From Ruditapes philippinarum (Eukaryota): a stretch of 64,000 nt of DNA. Of the stretch, positions 39,366 through 60,109 are shown one piece after another (the first letter of the stretch is position 1; each line of letters opens with the position of its first letter). The position numbers and the translations under genes were made by a program. The stretch spans positions 124,001 to 188,000 of the forward strand of contig NW_026861942.1 of NCBI RefSeq assembly GCF_026571515.1. Direction: 5' to 3'. The notes below the pieces were generated by a model that did not search any database, had not been told where the DNA came from, and saw only the letters and a list, made by a program, of their open reading frames with translations.

Positions 39366-39657
39366 TATAAGAATCTTACACTGACTGTCGGTACAGACCG
39401 GAATGTTTAGCTGGAGGTTAACTCTTTATTGTGGTAAAAGGGCTCTGCTGAATTGCCGCTTAACAGTTACCCTAGAGCAAGATAATCCCGGTTGTACCGA
39501 CAGCCGGTGTTTAATTCTTTTCTTTTTTTTTGCATATAACATAGCAATTATTATTAGATCAGAAATCACGAAAAATAATATATCCATAACAACTTTTTTC
39601 TTATAGTCGCGAATGAAATTACCATTTCATTCATAATGATAAAATGACTTCCTGAGA
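39366..39657. mobile_element. Partial, more diverged copy of the 23089-23512 hairpin element, opposite orientation
   Basis: TATAAGAATCTTACAC...GGTACAGACCGGAAT is the reverse complement of 23473-23512; similarity continues to ~23225. Confidence 0.7.
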
Positions 39658-41090
39658 CTTCCTGTAAATGATAATTCACCAAAACAATCAATATTAATAC
39701 ATGTGACTTAATGAATCAATTAATAGTAACGTTCAATTGATAGAAAGTGTGGGACAGCCTTTTTGAATTTGAAGTCAGTTTTTATATTTATCATAAACAT
39801 TTTCATATTCACATTTATTGGTCAATTACTATAATGATTAAACTAGACAATCTTATGCAATACATTGCTGATTAAGGTAAACTTGACAACGAACGAAAAT
39901 GAGCATAATGTCAATTTAATTGTCGACCAACTAGTTGTCAAAAAATGTACCTTTATTCAAACAGCTTAAGTTGAACAAATGATATCTGTAGCACATTCTT
40001 CTATTTTGAAGCACATCATTCATTCTTTAAAAGCATTCTTAAAAGAGTTTCTTTACTTAATCGGTGTATTGCATTTCAAATATATGTATCTATATTATCT
40101 ATTTATAATAATAAAAATATATTTTGCTAGTAATTAAACAAAAACCAAGTTCAATAGTTTGAGAGAAACATAAAAACAAACAAAAAACAATATCAAAGAC
40201 ATAAATAAACAAGACACTATGCATTGAAACTACACGATGATAACTCGAAGAGGAAGTCAGGAAAAACATCAATGTCATTTTACTTACAAACTGTTTGAAT
40301 TGTATTAAATCTTGACCACTTAAACAAGATTGTATGATCAGAGAAAAACTGGATGTAAAAGAGAATGGCTATATCCCTGGGCATTGGATTTAGCTATAAA
40401 GAAGGAAATACTTTTAAACCTTCATTATTGAGACATTGTATGGCATACTTGTACTTAAAATGACATGAGTCAAATAAAAACGTCAATAAAGAACATCGAA
40501 TTTTGCCACCAATGTGAATAAACACTTTTAGTAAAAAGGTGTTATTTAAAATAAGTTATTGTAGTTATATTATTTGCATTATTAACTGCACAGGATATTG
40601 AACATGAATATTTTTAATCTATGAAATATATATAGCTAACTATTTTAAAACACTTGACTCAATCAAAGATATCAGCAGTAACAATCTGACTTAAGAAGTA
40701 AATATCTTGATCAGAATACAGATTCTTTAAACACTTAACTTAAATATTTATATACTGATTGCCTAATATGATAAAATGTATAATATTATAATATGAAGTT
40801 ATAACATACACCCGAATTTTGTTTATGTTAAACATATGTAATGATTGTACCTAGTTTTGCCAATTGTTTTAATTACCGTTTTAAGACACATTTATGAACT
40901 TGTAGTAAAGAAATAAGGTGGACGTGGTATATTGAAGTTGCCATGATATGCACCGTATGAATACATTTCGGATGTTTCAATATGTTTAACAAAATGCCCT
41001 TTCATAATTAAGCAAGGGGTGTGAATGATACCTTTATAATCATCCTAAATCATGTCTTATGTGCAACATTTAAATTTTGCTTGGTATGTT

Positions 41091-44000
41091 TGTGAGGTTG
41101 ATGAAGGCACCCCTATAAAAAATGTTGAGCGTTCTTTGCGTTAGTTATTCTTTGCGGTAATTTGGCGCAGTCTCCGCCATGTTTTAATTAGAAAGAATAA
41201 AGGCAATGAATTAAGAACATATTCTTTTCTTTTTAGGTAAGTATTAACAAGTAAGAGAAAGAAAAAGACTTTCTTCGATAGGTTTATACATTGTATTTTT
41301 TGTTTATCGTAACTGTTATCAATGACATTGTATTGTTTAGCTTGCAAACATGTTTAAAGTTGAGAGTCATATGTTTTCGCGGAAAAACGTTTTACATACG
41401 TATTTTGATATTTATCTATATATCATCATATTTTTACTGTTTATTGTTAATACGCATTTTATATGATAACTATGAACTTTTTGTAAGTAAAATACAGTTT
41501 AATAATTGTTTAGACAATTATTTAGAATAGCATGTTTTAGTATATGCCATATTTGGAAAGAGCTCGGTAAATGAACCCAAAGGCAATTAAACGACATAAA
41601 GTCGAACATATAAAATATTGTTTTGAACATTGTTTATATGCTATTTGTCTAACCGAACATATAACAATTCATTTATTATCTTTCATCTTTTGTTAAGTAT
41701 ATACAGTTATAAGTGCCAAATAAATTGATTGTCAGTATTATCATTTGTGCCAATGATTTAGATTGTTATTGTTTTATGCATAATAGTAAATTCTCAAGTT
41801 AAGTTTCTATTGTAGCAGTTTAGTAATCATCAGTTTAATATGTTTTTATTTCAATCAGATATATAAATAATTAAGGTTGTGTCGTTAATCAGGTTATTAT
41901 TATTCATTCCAAACATTTTACATTGCAGTATTATCATAATAATGATTTATATTTTAATACTCTTTGCATGTACCCCTAGACATGAGTAAAGTTAAAACAT
42001 TGTTATTTTAGTTGTGAACAATTAGTTAAATGTTTTTATGCCACATGTTGTTATGCAACGGCAGTCTCCGCCATGTTTTAATTAGAAAGAATAAAGGCAA
42101 TGAATTAAGAACATATTCTTTTCTTTTTAGACTCCGTATCATATCTTCAATTTGACCCGGCCAACATTTGGGGGCTCGTCCGGGATTTAATAATGGCATG
42201 TTTTTGTGATGTGGTGCGGCTCAAGAGAAAAATTTTTGGCCTTGATTCTATAGAACTGACAACGTAAGAGCAATAAAGCAATTCACAAATGAAGATGAGA
42301 TGTTAAACTTTGCTGAAGAGATGGAAGAATCAATTTTAAAAGAAGAAGAAGAAGAAGATCAAATGGCTTTTCTTTTGGCTGATTTTGAACGGATGCTATT
42401 AGAATGCAAATCAGATGACAAGTCACACAAAATTTTTCCTTATTCAACAGAGAAGTACCATATGAAAACAGATCCGTCACCAGTCATATGGAGTTCAGTA
42501 AGGCAGCAAGTGTCACCTAGCTTATTGACATATGATAAATTGGGACAGCCATCTTACCAAAAAGTGGTTAATTCACTGTGTTGGTTGTCACCATTAGGAT
42601 TTTTTTTCTAAGCAATTTGATAAGAATACACAGTCACTTAAAGACATTTATTGATTATAGAAATAAGGCATGATGCTCAGGAACAAAGGGTTCGTCATTA
42701 AAGAGAACAGGTTGGCAATGGGTCAAAACTTCTATAGCCAAAAGTGTATGACTTGAACAGACTGGCCATCTTTTCATTTCATGGGGTTTTGGCGTGGTCA
42801 AACTGTTAAGTGTAATGGCGTTGGGTTTCCTGGGGAAGCGCTTAAGATAAGAATCAATAAATAATGAAGTGTCTTTGTATAAATAATTGTGATCTTAGAG
42901 GTTGAAAAGAATGTTAGTCAATAGTGTTTCATTTGAGATCTGGGGAAATATTTTAAAGCTTATGTTTGAAATAAGTAAATTTTTGAGTTATTTTTCTATT
43001 TGTTTATTTACTTGGTTTCTAGTCTTCATTTTATTATAGTTATATATTTTGTAAATTGTTTGTGAATCATTTGGGGTTTTAAGTGGTTAGTGATAACGGT
43101 TCATTTGATAGCAAATGTCGGGACGACATTTGGTTTACGGGGGGAGTGTGTGAGGTTGATGAAGGCACCCCTATAAAAAATGTTGAGCGTTCTTTGCGTT
43201 AGTTATTCTTTGCGGTAATTTGGCGCAGTCTCCGCCATGTTTTAATTAGAAAGAATAAAGGCAATGAATTAAGAACATATTCTTTTCTTTTTAGGTAAGT
43301 ATTAACAAGTAAGAGAAAGAAAAAGACTTTCTTCGATAGGTTTATACATTGTATTTTTTGTTTATCGTAACTGTTATCAATGACATTGTATTGTTTAGCT
43401 TGCAAACATGTTTAAAGTTGAGAGTCATATGTTTTCGCGGAAAAAAACGTTTTACATACGTATTTTGATATTCATCTATATATCATCATATTTTTACTGT
43501 TTATTGTTAATACGCATTTTATATGATAACTATGAACTTTTTGTAAGTAAAATACAGTTTAATAATTGTTTAGACAATTATTTAGAATAGCATGTTTTAG
43601 TATATGCCATATTTGGAAAGAGCTCGGTAAATGAACCCAAAGGCAATTAAACGACATAAAGTCGAACATATAAAATATTGTTTTGAACATTGTTTATATG
43701 CTATTTGTCTAACCGAACATATAACAATTCATTTATTATCTTTCATCTTTTGTAAGTATATACAGTTATAAGTGCCAAATAAATTGATTGTCAGTATTAT
43801 CATTTGTGCCAATGATTTAGATTGTTATTGTTTTATGCATAATAGTAAATTCTCAAGTTAAGTTTCTATTGTAGCAGTTTAGTAATCATCAGTTTAATAT
43901 GTTTTTATTTCAATCAGATATATAAATAATTTAAGGTTGTGTCGTTAAATCAGGTTATTATTATTCATTCCAAACATTTTACATTGCAGTATTATCATAA

Positions 44001-44227
44001 TAATGATTTATATTTTAATACTCTTTGCATGTACCCCTAGACATGAGTAAAGTTAAAACATTGTTATTTTAGTTGTGAACAATTAGTTAAATGTTTTTAT
44101 GCCACATGTTGTTATGCAACGGCAGTCTCCGCCATGTTTTAATTAGAAAGAATAAAGGCAATGAATTAAGAACATATTCTTTTCTTTTTAGACTCCGTAT
44201 CATATCTTCAATTTGACCCGGCTAACA
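41091..44227 (+). mobile_element. Non-autonomous LTR retrotransposon (Ty3/Gypsy-type): LTRs 41091-42166 and 43149-44227, ~980-bp internal region without pol
   Basis: TG...CA LTR ends and 4-bp TSD TGTT (41087-41090, 44228-44231). PBS at 42169-42186 and PPT GGGGGGAG at 43139-43146. LTRs differ by about 2 substitutions and 4 small indels. Empty site in the paralog at ~21375. Confidence 0.95.
42169..42186 (+). other. Primer-binding site, tRNA-Pro
   Basis: TGGGGGCTCGTCCGGGAT is the exact 18-nt complement of the metazoan tRNA-Pro 3' end, 2 nt downstream of the 5' LTR. Confidence 0.92.
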
Positions 44228-47200
44228 TGTTTTTTTTTCAAATTTGCATTTTAAACTTTGCAGTCCAACCCGTTTTTTTGACGAATGAATCAATTGTTTA
44301 AAAATCAGTTGAAAGCATTTTTAAATGAAAATATGCTCTTAACATATGCAGGAATGTCAATAAGTTAAAGGCGTTTACCTGTAATAACTATTTGCAAAAT
44401 GTGTATTTTGTATTTCAAGCAGGTGTATTTCAAGGGTTTTAAAGACCTTGTAAAAACTAAAAATCTAAACACTTATATATTGTCATCTATAGTTATGTAA
44501 GATGTTGCTTCACACTATTATAATTTTACAAATCAAAAGGGTGTTGCATATGAAGTCATTTAATTCATATGTCTTGTTTGTTACGTGGAGTTTACCATAG
44601 TTTTGATCGTGTTTATCATATTTTGTTAAAAAATTTAATGAATACAGCTAAGAAGTTGAAGGAAAAAACACAAAGAAAAGCCTTATACGAAATTATCTGT
44701 TTTGAAAAATGTTAATCACATTAAACACAGAATACAAACACATGTAAAACTAAACAGTAAATCTTCAGTGAAGAGGTTATAAGAAATATTTGTTAAATGT
44801 CGGAGACAACACTGTCTGAATGCCATGATCACGAATTACTTTGTTAGACGTATCACAACGTACATATATATTGGTCTCAAATGGGACTATACCGAAAGCT
44901 TTCTTGATTAATTGTTTAATTATTTCTCCCCATTTCGCAAGTTTGTTGTGACATTTATCGTACACGAAGTGTCTAAAGGCCTAAAACTAAGGAGCCAATA
45001 TGCTCATTGATAGATCGTCGACCGGAAGGTTGGCTTTTAATGATAGCAAGGAATCAAAATAATGTGACACTTTCCTACAAAATATGTTCATGCTCCAATT
45101 GTCATTAAGGTGAGAGTTCCATGAGATTATTCATTTGGAATATAGACATTCCCCAAACCAATTTTTTTTTGTAAACTGAACCACTCCCTCGCCTATTTTA
45201 AACAACCAGTCGGTGATGAGTCAATGGAATTCTTACATATTGTCTTTTTGGTCGCAGGTCACTCTCTTGTAGCCTTTTACGCATGAGAAATGACAACAAA
45301 AAGTGTCCACAAAAGCATTATGAAGATCGTTACAAAGAGTAAATCACGTTCATTATGCACAAGTTTACCATTCGAAATTTCATTTTTTTACAAAAATAAA
45401 TCAGCTAAAAGTTTGCTTCTTATTTATCTATCGTTTAAATTGCAGTAAAAAAGAGGTTTGAATTCTTCAACAAATGATTATCACGGATGACTGATTTCTA
45501 TATATTTTTGTTTTGTCTCATTTCGCAAACAGATCAAAGTCGACTGTGACAGAACTCATTTGTATCCTTAACTCGTATTCCTTAATTCAGCAGATATAAC
45601 GTCTCGATTTTCATATTCAATATCTATAGAAATTCATATAATGTGCTTTATTATATGATCTTAAAATATCTACAATCTCATTTGTCAAAACAGTAGTCAA
45701 CAGATCTTTTTATAAAATATTCACTGAGTGTAATATCATATACACTGACTGAATTGGAATTTTTTTCAGTCTAAAAATATATTGAGACTCCTTATCAATG
45801 ACCATGCATCTTAGACTGTTTATCACTCGTGCGCATAAAAAGGAATTGTTTCGTTTTGTTCTTTAAGGCATATTTCTCGATTAAAAGAGCATTGCTTTAC
45901 TATGATAGTTAAATGTTACACTGCAATGATAAGTATAACTTGATATTTTTCATTGACGTCATCTTGTTTACGTCCGTCTTTTTCCCGCGATTTAATGAAA
46001 ATACAGTGAGAGCAAATGAAATTTGTGTTCTGTTTTATCAAACCCAGCATTAGTAACGTCACACTTTTACATAACTATATAACTTACGTACAGATAAATA
46101 TATCATGTGACAAAATGACGGTCATTTAACTCTTTCCCTTTCCTTATACTTACATAACAATCTTGTGTACGTTTATTTTTATTGTTTTATACAAAACGCA
46201 TAATAACTGAATAGAAGAAATCAAAAGTGAAAGCAAAATATTTAATAAAAAAGTGAAAATATTTATGGCTCTGTGATGGTCGAATTTTTGGTGCGTGGTT
46301 GCAGCGGTTTATGTACTGATCGAGAGGGGAAGGCTTGCTATACCTTTAACATATTATCAAAATAGAAGTGCATACTAAGGTGAGTAAAGACAAGGATAAC
46401 GATTGACACAATGAAATCACTCGAATCATCACAGTGGATCGTTAATTATTCTAACCTTTATCAAATCTAAAGCTCTAACATCTATTATCAAAGTCTTAGT
46501 CTTGCAGATACTTTATAAAAAGACGCAGCAAAAACACTCCCTTTTTGGTGTGGTATTTCAAAACCAATGTTAATAACCTATAAGGTTATGATATGAATTC
46601 TTTCTTCTGTAAATAAATCTGTTAGAAAAATGTATTCAATTTATCGTGTCTGGCTTATGGGTCATAATAAGCCAAAAGTGTCACTTTTATTTTGTCTGTA
46701 TGTCTATATTCTTTACATAATACAATGTCAGTTAAACTCTTATCTAAATGGCAACTTGGGTCAAAACATACTTGCAACTTCTGAAGTTTTATTATGAATA
46801 GAAACATGTTATTATCGTTGTATTATTAAAGTGAGGTTATGTTCATTTTTCGATTTCAAGTTGAGTTGACTAATACATGTAATTGATAATAAAAAAAAAC
46901 GTTTATGAAATAATGTAAAAAGCCTAAATTGTAGAAAGACTGCCCCAGTCTTTTTAAAAAATAAACGTTATTGGTCGATATTTATAGGAAATTCCATTGG
47001 TGAATGTGGATTATTGATCACAATTTGATTTGTCTTAGTAATATATAAAATTGACACAACTGTTGTAAAATGTCGTGTTATTTTTATCTTTACATGTTCA
47101 CTGACCAATTACACTTTGTTGATGATAATGTCACTTAATCTTACTTAAATAACAACCATATGTGCACTGCAAAACATATGATACCAAACATTTGTAGTTG

Positions 47201-50200
47201 TGTTTATCTATACCTTTTAGATTATAATTGTTATCCTACTATGAAGCTGTCAGGATCAATACAAGTAATTCTATTGTCGAAAAGGGATATATGAAATAAA
47301 CAATAAAACATAAGTATTTAACTTAATGCATACTTTTAAAATGCATATCTGTGTGTGATATTTTGCATACGGTGATCAACTTTAGTAGCAGACACTTATC
47401 AATGACTCCAACATGATGGAAAAGAAATATAACCAAAATAGTTGGTTATATTCCCCGTTTTAGCTAATAAAACAAAGCCGAAATTAATGTAATTTCATTC
47501 TATAATAAGTAATGAATAAAACACACACATGGTATGAAAGTGAAAATATTGAAAATACATGTTTATCAATATACAGCTAACAAAATTTGAATTGTTACAT
47601 GTACTGAATTGTAAAAAAACTGCTAATTTCAAGTACAAAGACATCTGCAGATGATTTTAAATTAAAATGGTCATGCATTATATAATTATTGTTGAATCGT
47701 TCTTAAACCGGGTCTAAGACGTGTGGATAGTAACATGCACTTAACAGTTGTATAATCAAGTTTGCGGTTTGTGTGGCCTAATAGGTTTCCTTTATATCAA
47801 TCTTTTATTTGTAATCTTCAAACTTGAACTACTTCATTGTTTTTTAAGTTTTTGCCTAACTGCAATACTTGGATCCCTAATCTGTCTAATTCTGATAACA
47901 TTATGTTTTTTCATTACAAAATGTGTGCTAACAAACGAGCACATGTCAAGTTGTGTGGTTAAAATATTGTTTTTCAGAATAAAGATAAGGGATGTATCAA
48001 TGAACGATTATTCTTTGGAAAAAAAACATGTATGGTACGAATTGAAATATTAATACGTAAGATAGTTTCTACTTAAGTCCATCACTACTATGAAACTTTA
48101 TTGGTCCTTTATTCATTTAATATTGTTGACTTATAGTAAAATATATCTTAATCTAGCAAAATTCATCAACATAGATAGAAATAAAGATGCATGTATTGTT
48201 TCATTCACCTCTTTTCAAGACAAAATGATCACACGACGTTAGATTGCAAACAAGTATATTAAAATTTTGTATAAGTAAAATATTTAGTTAATTTCAACAC
48301 TTTGTTCAAGCAATAAAATTTTCATTTCATATTTCCAATGAAATTTGATCCACCAGTTATGGAATAAACGATAAACCAATGCCATATTAACAAATTTTAA
48401 TGGCATTTCATAAGCGTCATTCGTCCGCTCTTCGCAAATCTAACTTTACAACATTATTATAACTGTGATTATTCTATACTTACGAAATATTTGAGAAACC
48501 TTATATATTTGCCTTTGTTTGTCTGTTCACCTCATACGTCTATCTTACTGGTTTGGACCTAGGAAGAAATCCTTATCTATAATAATAACTTCTTACTCAA
48601 TAAAACTATTTCCCATGGGATTTGCCTGATACCATCGGCTAGACCTTATCTTAAAAGATAGTAAGTCTGTTCTATGGAGTTTCAAATATTACTGTATGTG
48701 ACATTAAGTTAAAACATTTTTGGTTGTTTCGAGTATTCAAAAGTCTCACCTAAAGCGTATATAATAGTAAAGTATGAATTATTGTTAAGTTCTTATCATG
48801 GAAAGGGCTAATTTTTGTATTTAAAAGACAAACCGTTGACTTTATTCAATAAGACTGTCACAAAAACTCTGTTTAGATTTATGAAAACAGATGTATTAGA
48901 AGACAGTTATTTGTTCAAAATTTGAAAAGTTTCCTGTAAGTTGAATATATTTGCTTGAACTGACTTGAACTAAAGCTTTTAAAATTAATACATTGATTAC
49001 TGTTTTGTGGATAAAAACACTTACCATGGAGTTTCACACACGCGATATTTTATTGCATTTCGAATATAAAATGGAACAGATTATTTAAGTTAATTATACA
49101 CAATAAGAAATATTTAACATTGCGTGTTTAGTTTCTCTTATTTGTGGATAAATTGTATGTGAAAAATAAATATCCTCTTGGAAATGTTTATTACTCTCCG
49201 CATGTATTTTGTGTCATTGTCCTTATGTGATTTTATAACTCATCATGGTTAGCTGTAGAGAAAGAGTTTTATTAATTTTAGCACATTTGATATTTTCTTT
49301 AATAAAATATATAAATTATTTTGTACCTAAACGTTAAACAGCCTATTGGCTGTCAACGTTTGCGTCAATGTAGGTTTCCCGTTAGTGTTTATTTTGTCAG
49401 TTCTTTCTGTCAATTTTAAGTGAAAAGTTCATTATGTCCGTCTTAAGGCCAGTCTTTTTATTCCGCCGATCTTAAATAAGGTATTTATTCTTTCAATTTT
49501 AAGTGAAATGTTCATTTGACCTAACTTAAGTGTTCTTTTTTCTGCTAATCTTAAGTTAAGATCACAAAACCGATATAATACAGGACAATCATATTTCACT
49601 AGTGTTTCCAAAATCTTTTGGGGTTCAACCTGAATAGAAATATAGAAACAATCACAAAGAAAAGCCTTAGACGAAATAATCTGTTTTGAAAAAGTTAATT
49701 ATATTAAACAAAGAATACAAACACATATAAAACATAAGAGTGAATCTTGTGTGAAGTGGTTATAAGAAATTTTTGTTGAATGTCGGAGACAGCAATGTCT
49801 GACTTCCATGATCACGAAATACTTTGATGTTAGACGTATCACAACGTACATACGTATATATTGGTCTGAAATGGGACATTACTAAAAGCTTTCTTGATTA
49901 ATTGTTTAGTTTTTTCTCCCCATTTCGCAAGTGTGTTGTGGCATTTATCGTACACGAAATGTCTAGAAGTCTAAAACGAATGAGACAAAATTCCCATTGA
50001 TAGATCGTCGACCGGAAGGTTGGCTTTCAATGATATCAAGGAATGAAAATAATGTGACATTTTCTAACGAAATAATTTATGTTCTTCCTCCAATAACCAT
50101 TTAGGTGAGAGTTACATAAATAATTCATTAAGAATGAGGACATTTCCCAAACAATTTTCTTTGTAAACTGGCCCACTCCCTCGCCCATTTTAAACGACTT

Positions 50201-56156: not shown

Positions 56157-57239
56157 TTAATAAAATAAATTATTTGTTAGATGAACATCCTTTTGGCTTT
56201 CAAAGTTTGCCTCCTTGTAGGTTTCTCGTCCGTGTTTATTTTGTCAGTTGTAAGTTAATTGTTCATTCAATTTTAAGTAAAAATTTCATTATGTCTATCT
56301 AAAGGTCAGTGTTTTTATTTCGCCGATCTTAAATAAAGTTTTCATTCTGTCAATTGTTAGTGAAATGTTTATTTTATTTATCTTAAGTTAAGTGTTCCTT
56401 TTTCCAATCTTACTTTAAGTGTTCATTATGTCAATTAAAATGAAGGTTTACTTCTGCCAAACTTTAGTTAAGTGTTCATTTTGCCAATCTTCATTTTAAT
56501 ACTATCACTTATAAGTAAATTCCTTATTTTGACGATTTTACGTGAAATGTTTAATCTGTTATCTTAAATTTGAGATCACAACACTAATATTATTCAGGAT
56601 AGCTTTGACCTTGATAATATTTTACGCGTGCTTCCAACATCTTTTTGGGTTTAACATAAATAAAAATTAAAACACAAAATGTTAAAAGGTACAATATTAT
56701 AACACAAGCAAAGATATAGCCTGAATTTAACAAAAATAAAACATAGCTATATAATTCAGATGTATATCTCCCAACTTCTTTTAATGCAATACAAAAAAAA
56801 TGAAAATGAAATTTACATTTTAATTGGTATTCTTGAGCATTCATCACTACACCCTTGTGTCTAGAAACGTGTATAACATTTTGCGTAATTTCCTCAAACA
56901 ATTTCTCCCTGTAAAAGTTCGTTGAGTTTTTTTTGTTTGTTAGTTTTTTATACCGTGGAGAATAAAATATTATATTCGCATAATGATATGAACGAAAAAG
57001 GAGTGACATTTCCAAATTCCTATTTAAGTACAAGCATGATAATAAATAAGAATGCACTAGTCAGTTTATATTTCTGTATTTCCCTTCGACTGTTTACTTT
57101 TGCTTTTTGTGCTTTATGGTGACTGTCATTAGGAGAAAATAACTCATGCAATATATTTCGTTGTTGTTTCAATTGTCCGAGAAGATGATATCATATCATC
57201 ATTTACCTTGACACATTTGTATATGTATAATTATTTTAT

Positions 57240-57465
57240 TCATTGGGCTTTACGTCTCACCAACAATGTCAAGTTCATATGCAGACATTAAAGGTTTACA
57301 GAACATCAGGTAGCCCTCCGTGCATTATTTCAGGCACGAATGTGCACCTGAGTAGAATCACCGGTTTCGTTTGCTAGCTGGATAGTTTCCTTACATAAAA
57401 CAATCCAAAGCAATGAGGGACAAGTGGTTTGAAGTCAAAGATCTTAATCACTAGGCCACAAAAGT
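57240..57465 (-). mobile_element. RUDI-like SINE (paralog of 29420-29885, without the MITE)
   Basis: CCCTCCGTGCATTATTTCAGGCACGAA...GCTGGATAGTTTCCTTACAT...GAAGTCAAAGATCTTAATCACTAGGCCAC. Confidence 0.7.
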
Positions 57466-59116
57466 CATTCACATAGTCATTGGTAGACCTTCGACATATA
57501 CAGATAATGCATCACACCACAGGCCATTTCTATAAAATTATACCCTTTTCTTGTTTAAAATACATCAACGCCTAAGATATAATCAATCTATGAAGATAAA
57601 AGTATAAAATTGTTCGATCGATTAATTCTATAATATTTATCAAGATTGATGTAAAATAAAGATTTTGTGCCAAGGACTCTGACAAAATATAAGCGAGATG
57701 GAAATAATTTTGTAATTTAATCTTTTTGAAATCAAATCATGTCTAAAGTGAATAAAAATATTCCAAATAATCCTGAACGTATATATCAATTAGCCATGTG
57801 TCTGTCCCAACAGTGAGCATTTTCACTACTTTCACTAAGGGTCAAGATTTGTTTGAGCAAACAAGTTTGCGCTGGAAATAAATGAATGTGTTGCCAAAGC
57901 CAAATGACATAATAAAAGTCAAAAAATTGTGTTATATTAATAAATGATAAAGATCTAGTATGTTATAAATATCGGCAAACTTCTATTTTAAGACATAGAT
58001 AAATAGAGTGGACAAAGTCATAAAATCGTATTGGTGCAATGCCGTAAACACAATGTTACTAAATTGTTTGTGGCTTTATTGCAATTTTCCTTCCATCTTC
58101 AGTAAAATCTATAGAATAATTTCCTTTTTACGGTAAATATATCACCATATTCTGTCTGAATATCATCTCGAGGATATTATATTCCCTTTAGTGGCTTATT
58201 CGCCTTCACTTTAAAGCAATTAATTACAAAAATGAGTACAATTTGAAATCCAAATCATATGTGAAATAAAAATACAAGAGTTCCTTGCTAAAGCAATTCA
58301 AATAATATTCTGTAAAGCATCTGATATACTTACCAATGTTAGTTCCTAGTATGATTCATTTAGAAAATTGTATTTAGGAAGAATGCATACATATTCCAAT
58401 ATATGAATAGGTAAAATTTATTGTTCTATCGTAACATTTGCTGTTTTATCATCACGTATTATAAACGGAAAAATTACCAAGTCCACACATGTTCTTATAA
58501 ATATTTTTTCCAAGAGATTTCTTATATTTTTCTAAGATATTCAGATCAAAACTAATGAATATGAATAGAGCAAAGATTTTGGTCATATAAGTTTTGTTGT
58601 CGAAAAAATTAAGTTTGCTTTATTATAACCTACTTTTAACTTCCACACCCAGATCAACAAGTTTTTAAATTCAACAGAATGAAGATGAACAATTTCAGTT
58701 CAAGCTTTAAAATTACACAATAGTAAGTTCTAGATTGAATAGTTGGACTGAAGTTTTAAAACAAAGCGTACGAATGTACGACAACTAAATGACTCCATCA
58801 ATATTCAATTCATAATAGCAATTACAGTCCTCCCTATGGCGAGTGAATTAAAATCGAGAAAATAGGAAAATAAAGCATTCGAAATTAAGCAAAAGGATAT
58901 CCGTTTGTAGAGAAAGTTAAGTTATAATAACAGGACTGAATTTTGTTGGCGCATGAAGCATAATATAAAGTACGCGTTTGTCATCAGATTTTAAGTGTAT
59001 GAATTCTGTCTTATATGGATCTTGTTTTCTGTTTTTATATAAGAAAACAGGATTAAATAATATAATGTCGTCGGTTAAAAAAGTTAAAGCAAAGTCAAAG
59101 CGATATTAATGTATTG

Positions 59117-59260
59117 ATAGATCCCTACTCTGACCTTTCATTTGAATAACAATAGATTTAACCACAAACATTGACATCTTTTGTTAAGAAATATGTGGTG
59201 GTGAAATTCTTGTTGCATCCACTTATCTGATAATTAGAATTGGACAGGTCAGGGATCTAT
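59117..59260. mobile_element. 144-bp MITE
   Basis: TIRs ATAGATCCCT...AGGGATCTAT with flanks GTATTG / GCATTG. The paralog at ~31405 has a single GTATTG and no insert. Confidence 0.7.
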
Positions 59261-60109
59261 GCATTGTATTATTTGATATAAAATACACATGCTACTTTCC
59301 TCGTTAACATCTATCTGATCAAATGATTTTAATACAAACAAAATACATATATAAGTGGAATAATATGGCAGATAATTGTTGTTTAGCCTGCACATTATAC
59401 CAGTGTGAAAATCCACTTCAAAATATGTTTCCGTTTTGTTTTAAAATATTTGATTGATACGTGAGTGGTTTATCAACTTTTAAGTGCCTCCCAACAAACC
59501 CAACTCCTAGACAGGAATTATCATCAACACGTTTAAAACACATACATATCATAGATGGTAAGCGTGCAGGTCTTAAATGTTTTTTTTTAGATAAAAGCGT
59601 TTGTATGCTTTTAAATACGAAATTGTGTTATAGATATGAAATACGGTTAATTTTTGTTGGGCTTTGTTTTCGTCACATCATCACAAAAAGGTGTCATGGC
59701 GACCTCTCAGCTAGACTAGTAGAATATGCGTTATATGCATTAGTTCAGGCACGAGCAGGTACCTGCGTAGAACCACTGATGTTCCTTCAGCTTGTTGGAT
59801 AGCTGCTTAACACGACAAAAGGTCCGTCTAAAGAAAAAACATGAACACTTAGAAACACTTTGATCTATATTATCACGAAAAAATAATCATTTAGATTTAA
59901 TACAGTCATATGAAGAATATATATTTTTAAACAAAGGATATAAAATTGTGGTACACTTAATTTTATTCTTTTAATATGTTTGCACATATATTTGTCAGTA
60001 TGTAGCAACATCTCAACATGGTTTATATATCCAGATATTGATTTTTTTAAACACGATCATGCGTTCAGTCAACTTGGATTTGTTTTGAAGATAAACGACT
60101 TTATAATTT

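Follow-up and report, generated by a model that had tools for sequence, protein, structure and literature searches.

We report that the long terminal repeats (LTRs) of a Ty3/Gypsy family in Ruditapes philippinarum enclose a GT-AG intron-like segment that ends in a second copy of the sequence standing directly before it, and that this LTR design is real, family-wide and repeated across families, in ordinary Ty3/Gypsy elements. It is quite likely, in our judgement, that the repeated unit (R) is exon 1, that the RNA is spliced at its 5' end and unspliced at its 3' end, and that strand transfer rebuilds the intron in each cycle. The replication trick is likely new, and we think it reasonably likely that a design in which exon 1 serves as R is undescribed and widespread, extending to at least eight Gypsy families of this genome and a relative elsewhere. 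When an intron follows the start site of an LTR element, the first round of reverse transcription should remove it; the layout shows how it can be retained indefinitely via normal minus-strand transfer alone.

The window is the whole stretch of DNA analysed (64,000 nucleotides; contig NW_026861942.1, positions 124,001 to 188,000). The parts of the element in the window are listed below and were assigned from the sequence except where another source is given.

41087..41090, no strand: left target-site duplication (TSD) TGTT, the same four bases standing at 44228-44231
41091..42166, plus strand: 5' LTR in its long form (A-R1-spacer-R2-U5), with TG...CA ends
41091..41166, plus strand: part A, 76 nt, with TATAAAA at 41114; putative promoter part of U3
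41167..41236, plus strand: R1, the 70-nt repeat, putative exon 1 (sequence, and the ramp in RNA depth across R)
41237..42130, plus strand: GT-AG intron-like segment of 894 nt, i.e. an 824-nt spacer plus R2
42061..42130, plus strand: R2, ending at the acceptor AG, with AATAAA at 42090
42131..42166, plus strand: U5, 36 nt, putative exon 2
42167..43148, plus strand: internal region of 982 nt, comprising the 5' part of gag up to about 42494 and, beyond that junction, the pol 3' end and the 3' UTR (family comparison)
42169..42186, plus strand: primer-binding site (PBS)
43139..43146, plus strand: polypurine tract (PPT)
43149..44227, plus strand: 3' LTR in its long form, with R1 at 43225-43294 and R2 at 44122-44191
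43295..44191 and 44192..44227, plus strand: intron-like segment and U5 of the 3' LTR
44228..44231, no strand: right TSD, TGTT

All four 70-mers are one identical sequence, and in either LTR the match between R1 and R2 is exactly 70 nt and not extendable by one base at either side; a perfect match of this length is far beyond chance. R1 begins at a C|G step, has AATAAA at 41196 and ends in a pyrimidine tract and AG. In both LTRs R1 is followed directly by GTAAGT and R2 ends in the pyrimidine tract and AG, and removal of the intron-like segment (894 nt in the 5' LTR and 897 nt in the 3' LTR) leaves 76+70+36 = 182 nt. The first-pass annotation, made from the letters alone, had described the TATA at 41114, the four repeat units with their AATAAA, the donor after the first copy, the acceptor at the end of the second and the compact 182-nt LTR, and all of this was confirmed. 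A stable RNA fold was looked for in R and none was found (z 0.16). The two window LTRs differ by 2 substitutions and 5 gap columns. A C/T difference between them (42162 versus 44223) lies 5 nt from the LTR end, and the same site differs between the LTRs in 3 of 12 pairs (C10429, C15774 and C2026). That very young elements also show the mismatch is a hint that separate cDNAs can supply the two U5 ends.

In its TG...CA LTRs, 4-bp TSD, PBS, PPT and order of gag and pol the family resembles Ty3/Gypsy elements in general, and it differs from them in having two R-like copies around a GT-AG segment in the LTR. The window element inserted recently, has lost part of its interior and belongs to a family without env; it is a non-autonomous deletion derivative: its gag 5' part is decayed, and the part of pol that carries the domains named below is deleted. 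That the deletion might itself be a splice product was rejected, the junction not being GT-AG. The larger family members C8478 and C90 encode gag, with a zinc-knuckle-like end, and a pol with the order protease-RT-RNase H-integrase as in Gypsy (PF13975, below its cut-off, PF00078, PF17917, PF17921 and PF00665). Between integrase and the 3' LTR there is no env ORF but approximately 540 nt of non-coding sequence (C8478, C6264), and the named relatives of gag are from echinoderms. Integrase and PBS also rule out that the family is Penelope-like. The same PBS, which we take to be that of tRNA-Pro, follows the 5' LTR in 14 family copies and in two metagenome relatives, and gag begins a few bases after it, so that the LTR contains the entire 5' leader. 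In C8478 (approximately 57050-60030) a 3-kb insert with inverted ends, resembling a DNA transposon, sits within gag.

The genome searches for the family gave at least 40 to 50 matches each, from 40 scored of 67 to 107 candidates. Part A and R could be parsed in 48 LTRs, a set that excludes copies without part A or on error-rich contigs (C3858, C5843, C9577, the 3' LTR of C10794 and the 5' LTR of C7741); 37 of them are long (A-R-intron-R-U5) and 11 short (A-R-U5). The short, 182-nt type of LTR, which the first-pass annotation had proposed to look for among genomic copies, thus exists. Exact 4-bp TSDs flank 8 of the 12 LTR pairs and 12 of 19 solo LTRs. The pairs comprise eight long/long, three short/short and one short/long combination, the latter (C13963:115626-117885, short 5' LTR and long 3' LTR in one insertion) having an intact TSD. 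A compound insertion with a single TSD surrounding the whole was seen at C3923:59493-61216, where a truncated short LTR, a 3' internal piece, a long LTR and a short LTR follow each other in tandem. Among the long LTRs the donor GTAAGT is present in 36 of 37, and the acceptor AG with a pyrimidine tract before it in all 37. There is no clear branch-point consensus in the intron-like segment, the only candidate being TTAAT at 42078, which is altered in the commonest haplotype. The short LTRs carry several R and U5 haplotypes, which are common to long LTRs, and therefore arise repeatedly; by itself a short LTR looks the same whether it came from splicing or from deletion between the repeats.

The layout was then sought outside the family. 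Among 40 Gypsy loci of the same genome, chosen for long frames out of 150 RT hits, a repeat ending in AG|GT and later again in AG was present on the sense strand at six, which belong to five families; the two antisense hits were tandem arrays. With the flanks included, C67/C11173, C9518, C15051 and C15456 proved to have the layout in their 5' and 3' LTRs alike, and C4778 in the only LTR that was seen. It is absent from five related LTR pairs, and for several of the 40 loci LTR pairs were not found. Repeats internal to the LTR but without AG|GT occur at L183/L184, L190 and L195. In related Gypsy families, L197/L198, L207 (extended), L178 and L182 have an intron-shaped GT...AG stretch in the LTR without a copy of the exon.

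In these other families the repeats are 89-122 nt and the introns 166-282 nt long. For four of them R similarity between families is 56-63% (shuffle background 48.7 +/- 3.5), RT similarity is 81-82% where measured, and R1/R2 identity within an LTR is 96-100%, the corresponding value for C4778 being 91%. Between the window family and this other clade R similarity (38-54%) is at background and RT identity is 48-49%; the RT tree covers 40 RTs, all from this genome. A search for the border pattern gave 247 genome hits and none in the control, the pattern including the donor and hence being no independent test of GT. Of 30 pattern loci fetched, 28 have the second copy, with a median of one difference, and two further R types among the 30 represent two more families. 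Thus, the layout exists in at least seven other Gypsy families of this genome, with different sequence. In the C9518-type family the match between R1 and R2 is looser (7.9 versus 10.2 differences permuted, p 0.0014, n 15).

Among the borders examined, the left one is always a C|G or C|A step, as expected at a transcription start site, and the right one always AG|GT. In the window family and the other clade the left border of R cuts through motifs that are intact only at R1 and that we take to resemble E2F (TTTGGCGC, window 41161-41168) and NRF1 (GCATGCGCA) sites. All 37 long LTRs of the window family have a G immediately before R2; copying of the cap by reverse transcriptase, which this G might suggest, was dropped as a general feature, the base being A or T in five other families.

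Relatives were also found in metagenomes, where a screen of 80 loci found with gag, on contigs that may end before the LTR, gave one true layout, one tandem-array artefact and no antisense case. The gag relative L238 has the full layout, built on an unrelated 67-nt unit; in L229 and L264 the acceptor and the PBS are the same and the last exon is 22-32 nt long, the contigs holding no first copy.

These counts bear on the possibility that the repeat is a recent private duplication with splice-like borders by chance, which the first-pass annotation had named, along with a lack of spliced transcripts and of short-LTR relatives, as the outcome that would refute its reading; that refutation fails. 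Only the perfect identity of the window copy speaks for such a duplication; as the family has 37 long LTRs, and as at least seven other families and a metagenome relative share the layout, we give it next to no probability.

The two copies of R change in concert. Within each of 29 long LTRs, chosen so that no contig contributes more than one, R1 and R2 are on average 1.45 differences apart, compared with 2.83 after permutation, and none of 100,000 permutations gave a value as low; no position has different majorities in R1 and R2. The two copies agree at position 49 in 28 of the 29 LTRs (Fisher p 1e-6), at position 37 in all 29 (p 8e-6), at position 22 in 25 (p 3e-4) and at position 23 in 28 (p 1e-3). 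Of the variants private to one contig, 28 of 30 are in one R copy only, a count that is inflated by assembly indel errors in some contigs, such that some of these variants may be assembly errors. Divergence between LTRs is 3.8% for R and 4.3% for the spacer, and R1 and R2 within an LTR differ by 1.9%. Private variants are thus unshared and inherited ones shared, and therefore the exchange between R1 and R2 goes with transposition and not with chromosomal time. The repeat is neither a private duplication nor a fossil but has been rewritten repeatedly, and the failure of R1 and R2 to diverge also means that it is not one old duplication. The first-pass annotation had offered either a spliceable intron or a second repeat left behind by reverse transcription of a spliced RNA and an aberrant strand transfer. 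An origin of the second repeat in reverse transcription of spliced RNA does look right; a fossil of one aberrant transfer it is not, given that inherited variants are present in both copies, and the two alternatives are better read as one ongoing process.

Chromosomal gene conversion or recombination might instead keep R1 and R2 alike, with short LTRs arising as DNA deletions and the GT-AG borders marking an intron, real or fortuitous, without a role in replication. The mixed pair at C13963, with its intact TSD, fits a deletion after insertion, and in two elements (C2026 and C8813) a variant is present in three of the four R copies. However, conversion has left 28 of the 30 private variants untouched and would have a tract of 70 nt, a short one, to act on, and 3 of the 12 pairs are short in both LTRs, which suggests an event before integration. 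Moreover, in L333/L334 the whole R2 haplotype is swapped in both LTRs of one element, and this is not what conversion within an LTR would give. We consider conversion very improbable.

RNA was examined in four raw-read runs (4-12% of each), using A, R1 and the start of the spacer as reference sequence. Two of the runs, X23 and X24, were usable. In X21 and X22, which are labelled RNA-Seq, reads break at GATC sites into mixed sequence; these runs are presumably ligated DNA, as in proximity-ligation libraries, and were kept as a rough control for the balance of reads entering and leaving R only, which is approximately even in them (about 39 in and 44 out, and 53 in and 39 out, respectively). In X24 approximately 21 reads enter R (depth 16 from A and 5 from the spacer end) and approximately 60 exit at its right border, 32 of them into U5 and the others, at depth 28, into the spacer, the depth across R rising from 24 to 55 and that of part A being low relative to R. 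This balance implies that most molecules begin in R; hence R appears to contain the majority of RNA 5' ends in one of the two usable runs. In X23, with 17 reads, starts in R are not in excess, and there was no start pile-up among those listed for any run. In four X24 reads the match to the element stops at the donor and foreign sequence follows, and many X24 reads continue past the donor from R1 to the spacer without splicing (depth 28).

A joint of 41236 to 42131, or its equivalent, was not among the joints listed for the four runs, which is weak evidence against splicing because a spliced read that starts in R has the same letters as R2-U5. The spliceable LTR intron put forward in the first-pass annotation draws indirect support from the donor in 36 of 37 and the acceptor in 37 of 37 long LTRs, together with the same borders in other families.

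The identity of reads from R into U5, whether begun at R2 or spliced from R1, would equally suit a promoter in the spacer. R2 would then be the sole true R, the A-R1-spacer part would be U3 derived from the 3' LTR, and R1 would be a relic or a second promoter. Such an arrangement offers no route for the exchange of variants between R1 and R2, which should diverge and do not, and some RNAs start in R1, because the depth at the start of the spacer (28) in X24 exceeds that at the end of A (16). We regard a spacer promoter as very improbable.

Taken as exon 1, R would act in the following cycle, in which we infer the splicing, the 3' end and the transfer. Transcription would begin at or near the first base of R1, as the RNA data partly show; R1 is read as exon 1 because it spans the likely start site to the donor. 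The cap-proximal intron (41237-42130) would then be removed, giving R-U5-PBS-gag and stripping the second poly(A) signal from the 5' end. At the other end, the RNA would cross A, R1 and the spacer of the 3' LTR and stop in or just after R2, unspliced. Cleavage 15-30 nt past the AATAAA of R2 would fall before the acceptor AG, which is 35 nt downstream of AATAAA in the window family, and so destroy the acceptor. On established LTR biology, the strong-stop cDNA, a copy of R1 and U5, would anneal to the terminal R2, which in the 3' LTR would be its landing site, and be extended back via spacer, R1 and A. The new LTR would regain its intron, and its R2 would be a fresh copy of the parent's 5' R1, with the effect that R1 and R2 evolve in concert, the pattern that is seen.

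Errors in such a cycle would leave recognizable by-products. Short LTRs would result if the cDNA transferred to R1, if the RNA ended at R1 or if the 3' LTR were spliced; an unspliced 5' end would yield an LTR with three repeats; and transfer between two co-packaged RNAs would yield an R2 of a different family haplotype. All three have been found: the short LTRs, the solo LTR L312 with three R copies and two spacers, and L333/L334, where both LTRs of one element have R1 of one family haplotype and R2 of another. A single LTR, L313, has the reverse haplotype swap.

Several observations count against the exon-1 reading. The TATA at 41114 is 53 nt upstream of the repeat, too far for the textbook TATA-to-start distance if the start of the repeat is that of transcription, and TATAAAA together with TTAGTT at 41141 would fit transcription beginning near 41143, before R is reached; this placement, the lack of a clear branch-point consensus, the looser match in the C9518-type family, the five related LTR pairs without the layout, the many unspliced X24 reads and the even starts in X23 all weigh on the same side. 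The 3'-end step is the weakest of the model, because no poly(A) end was seen in the reads and AATAAA/ATTAAA is missing from R in three of the five other families examined. The latter also speaks against removal of a poly(A) signal as the general purpose of the intron. In the window LTR itself the first-pass annotation had the intron remove one such signal; the segment holds, besides the AATAAA of R2, a further AATAAA at 41719 and an ATTAAA at 41586, and more than one would be lost.

The main rival dispenses with splicing in replication. The RNA would be unspliced, reverse transcriptase would jump from R2 to R1 at its 5' end and then transfer to the terminal R2; any use of the splice sites would be for expression only. 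Deletion between direct repeats by template switching is an established property of retroviral reverse transcriptase. Jumping of this kind would also link R1/R2 exchange to transposition and would yield short LTRs, and it agrees with the common unspliced reads from R1 into the spacer in X24 and with the lack of a listed junction. What it leaves unexplained are the exact AG|GT ends of the repeats in eight families of different sequence. Under it, exchange should also weaken in the 3' part of R, but position 49 of 70 is concordant in 28 of 29 LTRs, and it needs the spacer to be deleted in nearly every cDNA, as LTRs with three repeats would otherwise be common; they number 0 of 48 in the window family and 1 of 30 in the other clade. 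We consider jumping on unspliced RNA unlikely, and favour transfer from a spliced 5' end.

In the literature outside subscription journals, Repbase notes and supplements we found no description of an LTR intron that ends in a copy of exon 1. The comparisons that follow refer to the available sections of the cited papers. A survey of LTRs describes a single U3-R-U5 unit and in those sections does not mention splicing in LTRs (PMC3601003), and those of PMC6431247 hold nothing on LTR introns. Penelope-like elements likewise keep an intron just past the start site within a terminal repeat, the intron of the 5' UTR being retained in the pseudo-LTR, and the significance of its retention is there called unknown; they differ in having a GIY-YIG endonuclease and neither tRNA primer nor integrase, and no copy of the exon at the end of the intron is described there (PMC8557442). 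In foamy virus the major splice donor lies in the LTR and controls, with U1 snRNP, the choice of poly(A) site, and identical 5' and 3' LTRs must also be treated differently. Its donor is upstream of a single poly(A) signal, however, and the abstract describes no exon copy ending in an acceptor within the LTR (PMC3694450), whereas the LTR of the window family has a whole intron and a duplicated exon.

In TART of Drosophila the repeat in which transcription begins has another copy close to the 3' end, and a jump of reverse transcriptase between the repeats, restoring sequence upstream of the start, has been proposed (PMC1636488); TART is a non-LTR, target-primed element, and no sense-strand intron is restored. 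Duplication of a segment with AG|GT can create a spliceable intron whose removal restores the unduplicated sequence, but this is a single DNA event after which the copies diverge (PMC3265369), whereas the window family duplicates the exon side only and its copies stay matched. Splice signals placed in the 3' LTR of split-intron retroviral vectors survive reverse transcription, in an arrangement that is artificial, one-way and not self-regenerating (PMC3182074), and an intron derived from the HTLV-1 LTR works in the leader, though in a vector context (bioRxiv 10.1101/2023.01.28.526022). Finally, recombination between family members during transposition has been reported in plants (PMC5668417).

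If the exon-1 reading is true, the element would gain a cap-proximal intron that could aid expression or export or shield the RNA from early cleavage, identical LTRs could act differently at the two ends of the RNA, and, were the design widespread, true LTR elements would have a recurrent way to own a spliceosomal intron. U3, R and U5 have to be redefined for such elements, with the intron belonging to U3 at the RNA's 3' end and to the leader at its 5' end. This would explain families that mix short, long and multi-unit LTRs, and cautions that differences in LTR length need not date or split families. Natural markers that distinguish R1 from R2 report directly on strand transfer in an animal, and solo LTRs of such elements also donate a promoter, an exon and a splice donor to host genes.

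Other features were noted in passing. None of twelve other ORFs in the window has a Pfam match. A segment of approximately 350 nt is repeated 5 kb apart beside the element (44660-45010 and 49644-50000, about 85% identity), and an imperfect inverted repeat with 58-nt arms (72% complementary) and a 35-nt loop lies at 39369-39519. Elsewhere in the genome, a mini element of 390 nt with tRNA-like terminal repeats of 140 nt is present in C788 (L181, oriented positions 386-775).
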